Below, piece after piece: positions 1-31,121 of a DNA stretch of 64,000 bases. Both the position numbers and the translations under genes were made by a program. This DNA comes from Escherichia coli (GTDB lineage Bacteria > Pseudomonadota > Gammaproteobacteria > Enterobacterales > Enterobacteriaceae), in the NCBI RefSeq assembly GCF_003334785.1, contig NZ_QOWV01000002.1. The stretch is one strand, 5' to 3'. The first letter of the stretch is position 1. The number at the start of each line of letters is the position of its first letter. Below the pieces are notes generated by a model, which worked only from the letters and a program-made list of their open reading frames with translations, made no database searches and had not been told where the DNA came from.

Positions 1-354
1 AATACCCTGACTTCTTCGGGTGGCGCAGTACTGGCTGATAAGCGATTTCGTAATTTGAAATGCGCATGGGTCATTCGTTATTTTTGTGAAGATTTCAATT
101 TTTCCAAGATTAGATTTCCCATGCTCTTCGTGTTTACCCTTTAAATCCCACCAGATCTGTGTCAGCTCCGACAGACGTCGCTTGTCTGTTGGTTTTGATA
201 GCCATTCTTTATTGTGGTGGTTGTACAACGTGTATTTCTCGAAAGCGACAGCTTCGCTTTTCTTATCAAACTTCCTACGGATGCGTTTTCCATTACGTCC
301 AGTAGGGCGGATGTCCACTTCATATCGACCATCATCGAGTTTTTTGATTGCCAT
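1..354 (-). CDS. int: P2-type tyrosine integrase, N-terminal 118 codons only (gene runs off the window start)
   Basis: Reverse-strand translation from ATG at 354-352 reads MAIKKLDDGRYEVDIRPTGRNGKRIRRKF..., matching the P2 Int N-terminus as I recall it; adjacent to C repressor as in P2. Not in the ORF track because no stop lies inside the window. Confidence 0.8.
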   Translation of the reverse strand, partial: MAIKKLDDGRYEVDIRPTGRNGKRIRRKFDKKSEAVAFEKYTLYNHHNKEWLSKPTDKRRLSELTQIWWDLKGKHEEHGKSNLGKIEIFTKITNDPCAFQITKSLISQYCATRRSQGI

Positions 355-469
355 CAGAAAACCCTCCGAGTGGTGTGTTTTTTTGCGACTACTAATCGCT
401 TTTTTCGTGGTGGCTGAAATTTAGCCACCAATAGTAGGCACTTGTGATGAATATATTCACGATGAATTG

Positions 470-769
470 TTAACCAGTCTTTTGACCGGAGTGGGGCGAC
501 GTTGTTTCGTTTTGCCCAAAGTGTGCGAGAGCGGGCGCAATTTGCCCGGACTCAGGAGCGATCTGATTGGTCATGAACCATAAAGTGTATTTGGTGAATT
601 GTGGGGTCTGCAGGATGTTCATCATGACATCTGTTGGAGGTGTTGAACGACCACTTTCATAGTAACTCAGCGTGCCATACGGAACCCCTGTTAAATCAGC
701 AAGTTGTTGTCTGCTCAAATACTCTGATTTTCGCATTAAGACTATCTTCTCGCTTATCGTGTTTGACAT
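470..769 (-). CDS. C: P2 immunity repressor C (99 aa)
   Basis: 99-aa ORF MSNTISEKIVLMRKSEYLSRQQLADLTGVPYGTLSYYESG... with HTH; size, sequence and position (between int and cox) match P2 C. Confidence 0.85.
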   Translation of the reverse strand: MSNTISEKIVLMRKSEYLSRQQLADLTGVPYGTLSYYESGRSTPPTDVMMNILQTPQFTKYTLWFMTNQIAPESGQIAPALAHFGQNETTSPHSGQKTG

Positions 770-883
770 GGTGTTTAGATCTCAATAGTATTTAGTTTAG
801 ATGTAGATTGTTTAGTGCTTGGATGTGGGCACTAAAAGGCATTATAAGACATTAAACGCAATTCATGAGGGCTAGAGGACGAC
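770..883. promoter_or_regulatory. Divergent Pc/Pe early control region with C operator direct repeats (TTTAGAT at 774-780 and 796-802, 22 bp apart)
   Basis: Intergenic region between divergent C and cox; two direct TTTAGATNT repeats spaced 22 bp centre to centre, as described for the P2 operator. Confidence 0.5.
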
Positions 884-1030
884 ATGAGCAAGCAAGTAAC
901 ACTCATGACTGATGCGATTCCTTATCAGGAGTTCGCAAAACTAATAGGAAAATCGACATGAAGTGGTTTACTGAATTTGGCCACCTGAACAGAGGTGATA
1001 TGCTCACCTCAGAACAACACAGGTGCCATA

Positions 1031-2178
<1,148 letters not shown>

Positions 2179-2398
2179 CTCGGTGGCCAGTTTTTGTTGA
2201 CCACTTCAACAGGAGCGGTTCGTCGGATGATCGATAAAGGAAAGCTGCCTGTAATTGATATGACCGATCCACAATCAGCTTCAGGTCGTGCAGGTGAATA
2301 TTGGGTATACCTTCCGGCATGGAATAACGGACTAAAACTGGCTTATGAAAGCCGCCCTAAAGAGATTCGTGACGGCTGGTTGATGTGGTTAGGTCTCG

Positions 2399-2593
2399 GT
2401 GAACCACGTTAAGGAGAACCGTATGAATGAGCCTCGTTGTATTGCTCAGTTACTGCGTAACGAAAGCCCCAGGGCGATTGACTTCACCATCACCCACGGT
2501 AAGGGGCGTAAGGGAATCATTATCCGCACCAAAAAACAGAGTCCGTTAAAAAAGGCTCTGACCTTTCTGAAAAGCCGGAGGGTATGGAAATGA
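2399..2593 (+). CDS. Small early-operon protein (P2 orf78 position)
   Basis: ORF directly after cox and before B; synteny with P2 early operon. Start uncertain. Confidence 0.45.
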   Translation: MNHVKENRMNEPRCIAQLLRNESPRAIDFTITHGKGRKGIIIRTKKQSPLKKALTFLKSRRVWK

Positions 2594-3090
2594 CAGTGAT
2601 GACGCTCAATCTCGTTGAAAAACAGCCAGCAGCTATGCGCCGGATAATTGGTAAGCATCTTGCCGTTCCTCGCTGGCAGGATACATGTGATTATTATAAT
2701 CAGATGATGGAGCGCGAACGGTTAACGGTTTGCTTCCATGCTCAGTTAAAACAGCGTCACGCAACGATGTGTTTTGAAGAAATGAACGACGTCGAACGTG
2801 AACGACTGGTATGTGCAATTGATGAATTGCGTGGGGCATTCTCAAAACGCCGTCAGGTTGGCGCAAGTGAGTATGCATATATTAGTTTTTTAACAGTCAG
2901 TCAGCGTCGTACTTTATTTATGCATGCCGGATTGACTGAAAAAGAATTCAACCAGCCATACTGGCGAATTAATGAAGAATCATGTTACTGGCGTGATGCT
3001 TTATTCCGTGCATTACGTGAATTATTCAGCCTGTTTGAGTATGCACCGACAATTCTGACGTCGGTAAAACCAGAGCAATATCTGCATTAA
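2590..3090 (+). CDS. B: P2 B protein (replication, helicase-loading function)
   Basis: MTVMTLNLVEKQPAAMRRIIGKHLAVPRWQDTCDYYNQMMERERL...; 166 aa from this start; position between cox and A. Confidence 0.75.
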   Translation: MTVMTLNLVEKQPAAMRRIIGKHLAVPRWQDTCDYYNQMMERERLTVCFHAQLKQRHATMCFEEMNDVERERLVCAIDELRGAFSKRRQVGASEYAYISFLTVSQRRTLFMHAGLTEKEFNQPYWRINEESCYWRDALFRALRELFSLFEYAPTILTSVKPEQYLH

Positions 3091-6815: not shown

Positions 6816-7577
6816 TCAATTGAGTATCGATTTTCGTTCGAATATAACCATAACGCCAAGCGTCAAATGTAAGTCATCTATATGTGATTCGTATTCATAT
6901 TGGTCAGCATCAGGAGGTAGTAAATGCTCTGCTGCTGTAAAAACATCAATTGTAACAGATATATCGTCTGGAATTTCTTCATTTAATTCGGATATGTATT
7001 TTTTATATTTGTTTTTTAATTTCCTTATCATGTCTTCCTTATGGTGGATTGTAGTGCAGTAATTTTTTTTAGTTGAATCATTGTATGAATGGAATGAACA
7101 GTTTAATGCTAGGCCAAGACTTGAATTTCCTGTAGGGCCTGTGTGTTTAAAGTATTCAAGATTTCTTCTTATGTCAGAAAATAAAAGACTTTTACAGGGG
7201 GCATTTCCTTTAACTTCTATTGCACATATTGGAATGTCGAAAAATGGTCTGCTGTCCAATATGGCAATATCAATTCTGCCTGATCTTGTTGTGTTTGTGT
7301 TTTTTCTGACAGTTTTTTTTGAGAATGTTTTTTGGGGGTCAGACCGTTTCGATAAAGGAACTGTTGCATTAATGAATTTATTTGTATGGTACTCAAATAT
7401 AACTTTGTAATCACCATGGCGAAAAGATTTTATTTCTAACAACGATAGACCTATAGATACGGTAGCTACATATTCAGTGTTTATTTTTGCACCAGACCTG
7501 AAATCCATTAAATAAGTTGCGTCGGCTGACTTTTTCATTCCATCTTTTACAGCTTTCACAATATCCATGTTATTCAT
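6816..7577 (-). CDS. tin: Tin-like protein (253 aa), the P2 T-even phage inhibition function
   Basis: 253-aa AT-rich ORF immediately downstream of old in the A-to-cos hotspot, the position of tin in P2. Identity rests on synteny and recalled size, not on a recognised motif. Confidence 0.55.
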   Translation of the reverse strand: MNNMDIVKAVKDGMKKSADATYLMDFRSGAKINTEYVATVSIGLSLLEIKSFRHGDYKVIFEYHTNKFINATVPLSKRSDPQKTFSKKTVRKNTNTTRSGRIDIAILDSRPFFDIPICAIEVKGNAPCKSLLFSDIRRNLEYFKHTGPTGNSSLGLALNCSFHSYNDSTKKNYCTTIHHKEDMIRKLKNKYKKYISELNEEIPDDISVTIDVFTAAEHLLPPDADQYEYESHIDDLHLTLGVMVIFERKSILN

Positions 7578-7751
7578 ATCAACACCTTTTATATTCCAGA
7601 ATTATAAATCTTAATGATTGATTTGTTTGTGTGTTTAGGTTACTAGATTGACGTACTTATAGCACATTCTGATTTTGAAATCACCATCCTTGGGTAAAGC
7701 ACAGCCTATCACTATTGGTTTAGTACTGTGCTGTAATAGTATCAGATTAAG

Positions 7752-9512
7752 TTAAATCCATTTTATGAAATCTTCCATTTCATCATATTTTTTTATTACT
7801 GCTCTAACATCTTTGCTTTCATCACATAAACAATCTAAAAGACTATCCCATTCAGTTTGTTTTTTACCAAATCCATAAACAGCCTCTATATCACCGGATT
7901 TCCATATATAGATTCCGTTATCTTTCAATTTTTGATGTATTTCATGTATATGCTTTTGTGTTTTTTCATGGTTACATATTTTGATGAAGTCTTTGCTTGA
8001 AATGCTTTTGAATGACTCAAAAGTAGTAACTTTTGTATTTAAACTAAGCTCTCCTGAGTTGATTGATTCAATCAAAGCAGTCAATAGATTATCACATTCA
8101 GTACTAAGTAAGTCTTTATGCTCTGTTAATAGAATATTTGATAAGAAATCACAATCAGCTAGAATCCTTGTTTTTATGCCGATGGCATTGATGATTTGTG
8201 ACATCTTAAATAAACTACCCTTACCGTCAACGGCAACAATGCAGATTTTACTCGGGTTGAGTTCATGTCCGTTAATTTTTTTATAAAGTGCATATAGAAC
8301 GTTTGTCTCTGTTTTCCCTTCAACAAGCAAAACTTCTTCAGAAAATAAAAGGTATGATGAATTAGAAAGCGTGAATGCTGAGTGCAATTGCGGTGATGAA
8401 GATTTATATAATTCTTCGATTTTTTCAGATATAGTCTTCCTTGCTATGGTTCCATTAGAATCCTTACAAACCTGAATCGCATTTGCTGCATGCTTTGCAG
8501 AAAGCATACTGGCTGAGTGAGTTGATATTATAACCTGATACCCTGATTCACTTAATGTGACAAGTGATTCTCTGACAGAATTAATGGCTGAAGGGTGTAA
8601 ATATAACTCAGGTTCATCAATGAAAATCAAAGTGTTTGATTTTTTTGATTCGCTGTTTTCTTTTTTTATTTCGGCCAGGTATTGAATTAATGCCATTTGA
8701 ATGGAACGTTGTGTTCCGTGACCAAATCGGCTGATATCTCTCATTACCGGTTCATCTTCCCGAGACTCAAAAACTTTCAGAGTGCCGGATTTAAATATCT
8801 CATCTAATGTCGGTGTGGGAAAGTGTAACTTTACACTTACGTCGGGAAAAAATTGGTTTACTTTTTTATTTACGCCTGAGTCTATTTTATTAAGGCTTTC
8901 TAATCTGTTCTCACCGTTGTGAGAAAGATATTTACCTATTTCTGATATGTTTTTTGAAAATTTTTCTTCGTGTTCTTGTTTTATTTCAGAAACAATTGCG
9001 GAAAGTATCTTTCCTATTGTGGTCGTGTTTTTGCATTTTGTTGAGTCTTCGACAGCGTCAGACATTGCAGGGATATGAATTGGTTCCGGAAATATATTGG
9101 AGATTGCACCATCTATGCCGCCAGGGTTTTTCTTCCACGTGGTACCGTCATATACATCCAGACTTTTTTTGGCTTTTCCTGTTTCCTTATTAAATTCCTG
9201 TCTTCTTGCAAAGGTAAGAGTCCCGTCAATTATAAACGGAGCTATTTTTTGTTGATTCTCTTCTGTTAACAAAGACAGAGTATCATCTGTTATACCTTGA
9301 ATAACGCCTTCAACGGATACGGGGTGTGTAGGATCGTACACATCTGATTCTGAAATCAAAGAGCCATCTAACAGCCACTTAATTGCTAAGATAATATTTG
9401 ATTTTCCTGCGTTATTATAACCAACTAAAGCAGTGAAGGGGCGCAAAATAGCCGATGTTGACTTACAAGAACGAAAGTTGCTAATTGAAACTGAAGCAAG
9501 ACGTACAGTCAT
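7752..9512 (-). CDS. old: Old exclusion protein: OLD-family ATPase/nuclease (586 aa)
   Basis: Walker A LVGYNNAGKSN near the N-terminus, Walker B-like LIFIDEPELYLHP mid-protein, C-terminal nuclease-type region; 586 aa and position next to cos match P2 Old. Confidence 0.8.
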   Translation of the reverse strand: MTVRLASVSISNFRSCKSTSAILRPFTALVGYNNAGKSNIILAIKWLLDGSLISESDVYDPTHPVSVEGVIQGITDDTLSLLTEENQQKIAPFIIDGTLTFARRQEFNKETGKAKKSLDVYDGTTWKKNPGGIDGAISNIFPEPIHIPAMSDAVEDSTKCKNTTTIGKILSAIVSEIKQEHEEKFSKNISEIGKYLSHNGENRLESLNKIDSGVNKKVNQFFPDVSVKLHFPTPTLDEIFKSGTLKVFESREDEPVMRDISRFGHGTQRSIQMALIQYLAEIKKENSESKKSNTLIFIDEPELYLHPSAINSVRESLVTLSESGYQVIISTHSASMLSAKHAANAIQVCKDSNGTIARKTISEKIEELYKSSSPQLHSAFTLSNSSYLLFSEEVLLVEGKTETNVLYALYKKINGHELNPSKICIVAVDGKGSLFKMSQIINAIGIKTRILADCDFLSNILLTEHKDLLSTECDNLLTALIESINSGELSLNTKVTTFESFKSISSKDFIKICNHEKTQKHIHEIHQKLKDNGIYIWKSGDIEAVYGFGKKQTEWDSLLDCLCDESKDVRAVIKKYDEMEDFIKWI

Positions 9513-18908: not shown

Positions 18909-19512
18909 TTCGCGACTGCTGCCGACTGGCTCATCACCGCTTGAAGTCGCCGCCGCAAAAGCCTGTGCGGAAATTGAAAAAACGCCGGTCAGTATTCGTG
19001 AGCTGTGGAACCCGGACACCTGCCCGGCAAATCTGCTGCCGTGGCTGGCGTGGTCATTTTCGGTCGACAGGTGGGATGATAAGTGGCCGGAAGCGACAAA
19101 ACGCGCTGTTATCCGCGATGCGTATTTCATTCACTGCCATAAGGGCACTATTGGTGCGATTCGCCGTGTGGTGGAGCCGCTCGGCTATCTGATTGAGGTG
19201 AGGGAGTGGTGGCAGCTCAACGAGGAGCCGGGGACGTTCCGCATCGTTGTTGGCGTGCTTGAGCAGGGTATTACCGAGGAAATGTATCAGGAGCTGGAGC
19301 GCCTCGTTGCTGATGCAAAACCGGCGAGCCGCCATCTGACGGGACTGGCTATCAGTTTAAGTACAACCGGCAACATTTTTGCCGGTGCGGGATGCTATCA
19401 CGGTGACGCCCTGACGGTTTATCCCTACACCCCGGAGGCCATTATTGTCGGAGGGGATTATTTCCCGGCCTCGGCCATTCATTTAATTGATAACCTGAGA
19501 GTAAACGCATGA
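18901..19512 (+). CDS. I: Baseplate protein gpI
   Basis: MSDSRLLPTGSSPLEVAAAKACAEIEKTPVSIRELWNPDTCPANLLPWLAW...; order J-I-H. Confidence 0.8.
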   Translation: MSDSRLLPTGSSPLEVAAAKACAEIEKTPVSIRELWNPDTCPANLLPWLAWSFSVDRWDDKWPEATKRAVIRDAYFIHCHKGTIGAIRRVVEPLGYLIEVREWWQLNEEPGTFRIVVGVLEQGITEEMYQELERLVADAKPASRHLTGLAISLSTTGNIFAGAGCYHGDALTVYPYTPEAIIVGGDYFPASAIHLIDNLRVNA

Positions 19513-29588: not shown

Positions 29589-29615
29589 AAAAAATAAGCC
29601 CGTGTAAGGGAGATT
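29589..29615. other. Prophage attachment core (attR), AAAAAATAAGCCCGTGTAAGGGAGATT
   Basis: 27-bp sequence matching the P2 att core as I recall it; coincides with the terminator/3' end of cyaR. Confidence 0.6.
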
Positions 29616-29675
29616 ACACAGGCTAAGGAGGTGGTTCCTGGTACAGCTAGCATTTTATGGGTTATGTTTTTCAGC
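29589..29675 (-). ncRNA. cyaR: CyaR (RyeE) Hfq-dependent sRNA
   Basis: Reverse complement reads GCTGAAAAACATAACCCATAAAATGCTAGCTGTACCAGGAACCACCTCCTTAGCCTGTGTAATCTCCCTTACACGGGCTTATTTTTT, the CyaR sequence as recalled, with terminator hairpin and U-tract. Confidence 0.85.
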
Positions 29676-29759
29676 GAAACGGATGATAACCTTAATAAAT
29701 GCAGCTGTATGTGATCGGTTTCTAAGAATTTTCCATCCGGGAAAAATAATCGAAATTAA

Positions 29760-31121
29760 TCACTTACCGTGGGGGTTACGCGTGGTTTCCCCGGAGAAAT
29801 TACGCATCAGCAGCGCGTAATTGAGCTCAAGATCCTGCGGGACCGGGAGCCACACAGTATAACCATCGCCTGGTGCGACCGGCATCGCTTCACCTTTGGC
29901 GTTTTCCATGTGCTCAAGGGTAAAGTTAATGTTGCCTTGCGGCGTCATCAGCTCAAGGCTGTCGCCAACGGAGAATTTATTTTTCACCGCTACCGCTGCG
30001 AGGTCCCCCTTGCGCTCACCGGTAAACTCACCAACAAACTGCTGGCGGTCAGAAACTGAATAACCGTATTCGTAGTTCTGATAATCGTCGTGAGTATGAC
30101 GACGAAGGAAACCTTCGGTATAGCCACGATGCGCCAGACCTTCCAGAGTTTCCAGCAGGCTGGTATCGAACGGTTTGCCCGCAGCGGCGTCATCGATAGC
30201 TTTACGGTAAACCTGTGCGGTGCGTGCGCAATAGTAGAAAGATTTAGTACGGCCTTCGATTTTCAGCGAATGCACGCCCATTTTGGTCAGGCGTTCTACA
30301 TGGGCGATGGCGCGCAGATCTTTCGAGTTCATGATGTAAGTGCCGTGCTCATCTTCAAACGCGGTCATATACTCGCCCGGACGCTGGGCCTCTTCGATCA
30401 TAAACACTTTGTCGGTTGGTGCGCCGATACCCAGCGTCGGCTCAACATTTTGCACCGGAATCGGCTCGTACTTGTGTACGATGTTGCCAACATCATCTTC
30501 TTTCCCTTCCTGGACGTTGTACTCCCAGCGGCAGGCGTTGGTGCAGGTGCCCTGGTTCGGGTCGCGCTTGTTGATATAGCCAGAGAGCAGGCAGCGACCG
30601 GAGTAGGCCATGCACAGCGCGCCGTGAACGAAGATCTCGATCTCCATATCCGGCACCTGATTGCGGATCTCTTCAATCTCTTCCAGCGACAGCTCGCGAG
30701 AGAGGATCACGCGGGTCAGGCCCATTTGCTGCCAGAATTTCACCGTCGCCCAGTTCACGGCGTTAGCCTGCACCGAAAGGTGGATCGGCATTTCAGGGAA
30801 GTGCTCACGCACCAGCATAATCAGCCCTGGATCGGACATAATCAGCGCATCCGGCCCCATTTCCACCACCGGTTTCAGGTCACGGATAAAGGTTTTCAGC
30901 TTGGCGTTGTGCGGTGCAATGTTGACCACGACATAAAACTTTTTCCCCAGCGCGTGGGCTTCATTGATGCCGAGCTGAAGATTTTCGTGGTTGAATTCGT
31001 TGTTGCGCACACGCAGGGAGTAACGCGGCTGGCCCGCATAAACAGCATCTGCGCCATAAGCGAAAGCGTAACGCATATTTTTCAGCGTTCCCGCCGGGGA
31101 AAGGAGTTCCGGTTTAAACAT
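29760..31121 (-). CDS. yegQ: Peptidase U32-family protein YegQ (453 aa)
   Basis: MFKPELLSPAGTLKNMRYAFAYGADAVYAGQPRYSLR...; K-12 gene order. Confidence 0.9.
   Translation of the reverse strand: MFKPELLSPAGTLKNMRYAFAYGADAVYAGQPRYSLRVRNNEFNHENLQLGINEAHALGKKFYVVVNIAPHNAKLKTFIRDLKPVVEMGPDALIMSDPGLIMLVREHFPEMPIHLSVQANAVNWATVKFWQQMGLTRVILSRELSLEEIEEIRNQVPDMEIEIFVHGALCMAYSGRCLLSGYINKRDPNQGTCTNACRWEYNVQEGKEDDVGNIVHKYEPIPVQNVEPTLGIGAPTDKVFMIEEAQRPGEYMTAFEDEHGTYIMNSKDLRAIAHVERLTKMGVHSLKIEGRTKSFYYCARTAQVYRKAIDDAAAGKPFDTSLLETLEGLAHRGYTEGFLRRHTHDDYQNYEYGYSVSDRQQFVGEFTGERKGDLAAVAVKNKFSVGDSLELMTPQGNINFTLEHMENAKGEAMPVAPGDGYTVWLPVPQDLELNYALLMRNFSGETTRNPHGK

Follow-up and report, generated by a model that had tools for sequence, protein, structure and literature searches.

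An attachment core of a P2 prophage coincides with the 3′ end of the small RNA gene cyaR in Escherichia coli

We analysed a 64,000-nucleotide stretch of Escherichia coli DNA (the window) in which P2 phage genes run up to the host genes cyaR and yegQ. The window begins inside int: the 5′ third of the P2 gene lies at 1–354 on the minus strand, and the remainder, including the catalytic domain, lies beyond the window start. The residues encoded here are identical to residues 1–118 of P2 Int (118/118 aa). The P2 prophage body follows at 355–29588 on the plus strand and contains the C repressor gene (470–769, minus strand), a cox gene split by an insertion sequence (IS; 884–2412), the replication genes B and A, tin, old and the late genes through D (28023–29186). 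Between 2209 and 27000, the window is 97.5% identical to P2 over 86% of the length. The P2 exclusion or anti-phage genes tin (253 aa) and old (586 aa) occupy 6816–9512 on the minus strand and were recognized by PADLOC (Tin, 8.8e-98; Old, 1.3e-214). The tail-fibre region at 19509–22824 is unlike that of P2. On its plus strand, a fibre gene of reduced length (378 aa) is accompanied by an assembly gene; its minus strand carries an alternative fibre C-terminus and an assembly gene, and a DNA invertase is encoded at 22225–22824. This region is an invertible host-range segment that stands in place of the P2 H/G arrangement. Elsewhere in the window we found two SIB RNA genes (sibA/sibB-type antitoxin sRNAs; 43037–43179 and 43366–43514, minus strand) and a JUMPstart element (59328–59366, plus strand), as expected for that part of the E. 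coli chromosome.

The right end of the prophage is made up of ogr, its terminator and a stretch corresponding to the P2 P arm. The ogr gene (29268–29486, plus strand) encodes the 72-aa late-gene activator; its translation begins MFHCPLCQH, it belongs to PHROG 603 (transcriptional regulator), and it is named ogr in the matching phage records. The Rho-independent terminator of ogr and the F operon (29497–29524, plus strand) consists of a hairpin at 29497–29520 and a T run that extends to 29524, and a homologous terminator is annotated in P2. The 64 nt that follow (29525–29588, plus strand) appear from their sequence to be the P arm: they align to that of P2 without a gap, and the first 50 nt are identical. 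The last 14 nt before the core contain several differences from the P2 reference and match the P2 remnant of K-12. By homology with P2, in which an Int P-arm site is annotated at 24293–24320 and an IHF site at 24324–24357, Int arm-type sites are predicted at about 29526–29553 and an IHF site at about 29557–29590.

Immediately to the right of the P arm lies the 27-mer AAAAAATAAGCCCGTGTAAGGGAGATT (29589–29615, read on the plus strand), which has no second match in the 64-kb window even with up to 3 mismatches allowed. On the minus strand, the same bases form the 3′ end of the sRNA gene cyaR, also called ryeE (29589–29677), with an RNA that runs from about 29675 to 29589. Rfam family RF00112 (CyaR_RyeE) matched 29677 to 29592 on this strand over model positions 1–85 of 85, with 100.7 bits against a gathering score of 47 (E = 6e-19); the same score was obtained in genomes in which the site is unoccupied. 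In the minimum free energy fold of the 87-nt RNA (29675 to 29589), the 5′ arm of the terminator spans 29624–29614, the loop 29613–29608, the 3′ arm 29607–29597 and the tail 29596–29589. Together with a terminator scan, this fold defines an intrinsic terminator hairpin at 29597–29624 (minus strand) with an 11-bp stem and the 6-nt loop UCUCCC, followed by the tail UAUUUUUU. Counted along CyaR, the 27-mer covers nucleotides 61–87: it starts with the two uppermost bases of the 5′ arm and takes in the loop, the complete 3′ arm and the U tail. The larger part of the 5′ arm (29616–29624) falls outside it, in host-only DNA. The original prediction had described the 27-mer as the terminator region of cyaR on the minus strand, and both the Rfam match and the fold agree with that description.

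Upstream of cyaR, a CRP-like site TGTGATCGGTTTCTAA (29710–29725, minus strand) is centred approximately 42 bp from the 5′ end of the gene. This candidate, TGTGA-N6-TCTAA, was found by inspection only, and a generic sigma-70 scan found no promoter there. CRP dependence of cyaR is established (refs 26–28 of PMC3333887). The site lies in host DNA and would be untouched by integration. The host gene yegQ (trhP; 29760–31121, minus strand), identified as an open reading frame and from the RefSeq annotation under its matches, flanks cyaR here, and cyaR adjoins yegQ in all of the comparison genomes.

The 27-mer is identical over 27/27 nt to positions 24356–24382 of the P2 genome (NC_001895), which are annotated as “attP” and “Int, attP core”. 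The original prediction had named the 27-mer as the P2 attachment core, and this identification proved exact. Consistent with this identity, in a megablast comparison of window 29100–29760 with phage genomes, the match to P2 ran to query position 516, which corresponds to window position 29615, the final base of the core. The matches to six more Peduovirus genome records likewise ended at 29615. In many other P2-like phages similarity stopped at 29575–29583, 30–40 bp short of 29615, as expected of relatives with a different att specificity. The 27-mer is thus, with high confidence, the common core of attR, where a P2 prophage inserted at the preferred site locI ends on the right; locI lies at the 3′ end of cyaR. 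Nothing in the sequence speaks against this reading. It places the right-hand prophage boundary at a single base, 29615, or at a crossover within 29589–29615.

The overlap of core and cyaR might instead be a chance resemblance or an artefact of annotation. We regard this explanation as excluded. None of 100 shuffles gave a match (0/100), and 27/27 nucleotides are shared between phage and host. In addition, the exact 27-mer occurs at 11 loci in species-representative genomes; at 10 of these (Escherichia, plus eight loci in Kluyvera) it is part of a full-length CyaR match, and the remaining one is an attL from a contig assigned to Citrobacter.

We compared the junction with its counterparts in related strains, as the original prediction had proposed for the empty site. 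In two E. coli genomes with an unoccupied site (L003 and L004), the order is yegR, core, cyaR, yegQ, with a single copy of the core, and this core is the same 27 bp as in the window. The window itself has the layout of an attR: ogr, the terminator and the P arm lead up to the core, and the rest of cyaR and then yegQ continue from it. The window begins inside int, approximately 750 bp short of the expected attL, and we therefore read attL by proxy in E. coli DA33137, which carries a prophage with the same 27-mer between yegR and int (L002 2235–2261). The Int of this prophage is identical to P2 Int over 337/337 residues, and its int-C-cox region is identical to window 1–3000, with the IS removed, at 1745 of 1747 positions. 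An alignment of these sites (A1) placed attP as P-core-P′, attR as P-core-B′ (window and K-12), attL as B-core-P′ (DA33137) and the two attB sites as B-core-B′. Judged by sequence, the four-way relationship among phage site, empty site and the two prophage junctions holds.

These comparisons fit a simple scheme of integration. P2 Int belongs to the tyrosine recombinases and binds at arm sites as well as at a core site (PMC3448106). In the scheme, Int, assisted by IHF, would exchange strands between the attP core and its identical 27-bp counterpart in attB. The crossover would lie in the centre of the core, where GTGTAA, flanked by AATAAGCCC and GGGAGATT as an imperfect inverted repeat, is the natural candidate. 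Phage DNA to the left of the crossover would then make up the whole downstream flank, the U tail and probably the greater part of the terminator's 3′ arm. To the right of the crossover, the loop side, the 5′ arm, the cyaR body and its promoter would be host DNA. A joint in K-12 bears on the position of the crossover. In K-12 J53 (L005 2558–2580), the left end of the cryptic remnant is a deletion joint within a partial attL core, ...AAAAAATAAGCCCGT/GTA/GCAGAG... (GCAGAGTTCTCC), which is fused to gene D at the equivalent of window position 28974. This joint falls exactly at the core centre GTGTAA and would fit an aberrant Int-type event there. Catalysis by Int of the integration in the window lineage is itself a presumption. 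What the sequences show directly is that the cores are identical, that the att sites stand in the four-way relationship, that cyaR is intact and where exactly phage homology ends.

Because the phage and host cores are identical, CyaR and its terminator are regenerated base for base, and since the RNA and its hairpin are exactly restored, integration is silent for the RNA sequence. The claim that integration rebuilds the 3′ end of the sRNA from phage DNA therefore needs qualification: the core is indeed shared, but only the part to the left of the crossover would physically be phage DNA, and its sequence equals the host copy. Thus, as read from the sequences, integration leaves CyaR unchanged, and the DNA beyond the U tract alone becomes phage. 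After the U tract, the attR type reads UUAUUUUUU-ACGCG and the attB type reads UUAUUUUUU(U)-AUGCA. The number of tail U residues is 7 in L003 versus 6 in the window and L004.

These differences raise the question of whether integration is neutral for CyaR. The new flank, together with a convergent ogr and its terminator, could alter termination or readthrough of CyaR, and cAMP-CRP-driven transcription of cyaR could interfere, in antisense, with ogr or with attR at its Int and IHF sites. The original prediction had put the ogr terminator, convergent with cyaR, about 65 bp away, and we measured 64 bp from its end to the cyaR 3′ end and core. Readthrough at the CyaR terminator was approximately 41% in a reporter construct (PMC9765468), and the base after the U tract and the U count differ between sites, as described above. 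Moreover, when the minus strand is read (29520 to 29497), the ogr terminator again scores as a terminator-like hairpin, here facing cyaR, which could mean that the phage insulates itself. However, the hairpin and at least 6 U residues are identical in the attR and attB contexts. Furthermore, K-12, in which CyaR was characterized as a normal functional sRNA, already has an attR-type flank, and its 120 nt to the left of the core differ from those of the window at few positions. We therefore consider a non-neutral effect of integration unlikely. Refolding of the terminator by its downstream flank was rejected as a candidate effect: addition of either the attR-type or the attB-type flank in folding left the hairpin unchanged. 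The cyaR gene is intact despite the prophage. Two possible follow-up topics, terminator halves of phage descent and CRP-driven readthrough reaching ogr, are of minor weight and speculative, and the junction opens no new question by itself.

We also examined the capacity of the prophage to leave the site. An IS3-family (IS911-like) element of 1250 bp (959–2208, plus strand) lies inside cox; its terminal inverted repeats are 27 nt long, and 3 bp of target sequence (ACA) are duplicated. It interrupts cox after codon 25; in silico removal of the element and one ACA restored an open reading frame identical to cox of DA33137. The prophage accordingly has no intact Cox directionality factor. No complete E. 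coli genome covered at least 80% of window 1–3000 and none shared the IS-cox junction, to which no species-representative genome had an exact match either. Cox-defective P2 prophages release no phage (PMC3936717), and the window prophage is probably unable to excise and locked in place. Because cox, which encodes the excision directionality factor, is split by the IS, the junction is probably now fixed. The split bears on present mobility but not on the identity of the att junction.

To estimate how often the site is occupied, we searched complete E. coli genomes with three 227-bp junction probes at a coverage of at least 80%; the resulting counts are estimates. The cyaR-yegQ side was present in 5,424 of 5,426 genomes. 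Of these 5,424, 1,273 had an attR-type junction and 814 one of the attL type. Contiguous attB sites or short remnants were scored in 4,574, a class that includes K-12-type remnants since nearby pieces were joined. About 460 genomes had attR without attL. Roughly, then, an estimated 15% of the genomes have a prophage-type junction pair, 8% have a remnant, and three quarters are unoccupied. Given that attR and attL junctions recur among the 5,424 genomes, the site is used recurrently.

K-12-type remnants with exactly the same attR are thus common, and the junction in the window might be one of them, a short cryptic ogr-D′ piece with no attL partner. The roughly 460 genomes with attR but no attL are in keeping with such a reading. 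However, the window contains P2 genes from int through ogr in a contiguous 29.6-kb run, at 97.5% identity to P2. The sole disruption in the immunity region (1–3000) is a simple IS insertion with a target duplication, and the tail-fibre region departs from P2 by an invertible-segment module. A remnant is therefore very improbable, and we return to the reading of the junction as the attR of a P2 prophage.

Outside E. coli, the Kluyvera loci with the 27-mer come from at least six species (L006, L009, L010 and L012–L015 are among these loci). In K. intermedia, a P2-like P arm and a portal-gene fragment precede the core and represent a remnant. In Kluyvera sichuanensis, the terminator stem contains a C-A mismatch, because the host-only 5′ arm differs while the core is of the P2 type. 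Other types of enterobacterial cyaR gene from metagenomes keep the loop AAUCUCCCUU, have different but mostly complementary stems, and lack P2 arms. The site appears to be limited to the Escherichia/Kluyvera type of terminator. Two further candidates were rejected. The first was that phage cores track other stem variants of cyaR; a guessed consensus-type core, GCCCGCGCAAGGGAGATT, gave one match in IMG/VR, in a coding region with no CyaR, which we attribute to chance. The second was that hybrid terminators, with a phage 3′ arm and a foreign 5′ arm, exist in other genera. All 26 metagenomic cyaR loci with non-E. coli stems had their own, mostly complementary variants, and none of the 26 had a P2 arm nearby, leaving hybrids unsupported beyond Escherichia and Kluyvera. 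Separately, E. coli-type attL and attR junctions of a P2 prophage were present on metagenome-assembled contigs assigned to Citrobacter sp. and Collinsella sp. (L008 and L011), and these contigs are probably binning contaminants.

The “empty” sites also bear traces of phage sequence. Directly to the left of the core, attB carries a P2 P arm-like sequence, TCGATGTGGTCAATG, that is identical at 15/15 positions and then approximately 80% identical over 36 nt. Its alignment score was reached by 0 of 5000 shuffles, and three unrelated flanks showed no such similarity. The P arm-like stretches lie at L003 2943–2978 and L004 2954–2989, and in L016 and L002 to the left of the cores at 661 and 2235, respectively. 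The similarity extends further on the host side of DA33137 and in Escherichia sp. MOD1-EC7003, a member of a cryptic clade. In addition, yegS lies 86 bp from the core in E. coli E69, a species-cluster representative that is without the approximately 0.8-kb segment containing yegR and the fossil arm. The right border of this indel is at most 7 nt from the core (L007 2448–2540 against L003 2120–3000). Taken together, the P-arm likeness and the yegR indel suggest that the present “host” flank is the scar left by an ancient P2-like insertion.

An extension of this idea is that, in essentially every E. coli, an ancient P2-like prophage was the source of the last ~15 nt of cyaR and of the flank downstream, and that repeated integration locks the 3′ half of the terminator to the phage core while the 5′ arm drifts or compensates. 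We advance this extension tentatively and think it somewhat more doubtful than probable. The host-only 5′ arm contributes a U·G wobble to the E. coli terminator stem. We rejected the candidate that yegR, which encodes a 105-aa lipoprotein-like orphan, is phage cargo: in tblastn searches, YegR matched only two “phage” records that contain host flank and was not found in genuine phage genomes. Another feature of the empty site in L003 (2979–3014) is an 8-bp inverted repeat formed by GGGCTTAT and, 10 nt to its right, ATAAGCCC of the core; it would fold only in CyaR readthrough transcripts.

That P2-type phages insert at cyaR is correct but already known. In the E. coli W genome paper, “cyaR RNA” is tabulated as the insertion site of Wphi2 (P2), of the K-12 element ogr-D′ and of P2*B in strain B (PMC3032704, Table 2). 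Besides this table, we found nothing in the open-access literature that explicitly names cyaR as P2 locI. A 2011 survey of P2-like integrases states that P2-type phages integrate “between other genes”, with cyaR unnamed (PMC3448106). The junction described here accounts for the presence of phage genes next to cyaR in many E. coli strains, K-12 among them.

The primary papers on recombination between P2 attP and attB locI, and on the roles of Int, IHF and Cox, are reportedly Yu et al. 1989 and Barreiro & Haggard-Ljungquist 1992. The window resembles the P2 attP/locI system in its identical 27-bp core, its P arm with the 64-nt spacing from the ogr terminator, its identical Int (N-terminal 118 aa) and its neighbours yegR and yegQ. 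It departs from the P2 reference in that cox is interrupted by an IS911-like element, the tail-fibre genes give way to an invertible segment plus a DNA invertase, and the last 14 nt of the P arm are changed at several positions. Compared with the cryptic remnant of K-12, in which ogrK and a D′ fragment lie beside cyaR, the attR is essentially the same and cyaR is identical. However, K-12 retains approximately 0.6 kb of phage DNA, whereas the window carries a whole prophage. All classical work on CyaR has in fact been done on an attR-type gene.

Other small RNA loci are also recurrent hotspots for P2-type or other prophages. The sdsR/ryeB locus of Salmonella is a phage attachment site (PMC3333887), and rybB is the site of P2-type elements in E. 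coli W, B and Crooks (PMC3032704). cyaR resembles them in this respect, but it is a different sRNA with a different core sequence. Phage 186 resides in a tRNA-Ile gene and Fels-2/SopEPhi in ssrA (PMC3448106). As in such integration of temperate phages and islands at the 3′ ends of tRNA and tmRNA genes, the element at cyaR carries the 3′ end of the RNA gene, the gene is regenerated, and the displaced fragment marks the other end of the prophage. By contrast with those sites, the phage here enters a Rho-independent terminator, that of an Hfq-dependent sRNA, and not a tRNA-like fold. The cyaR junction is thus a clean example of the rule that integrating elements copy the 3′ end of a structured RNA gene, in this case the terminator of an sRNA rather than a tRNA.
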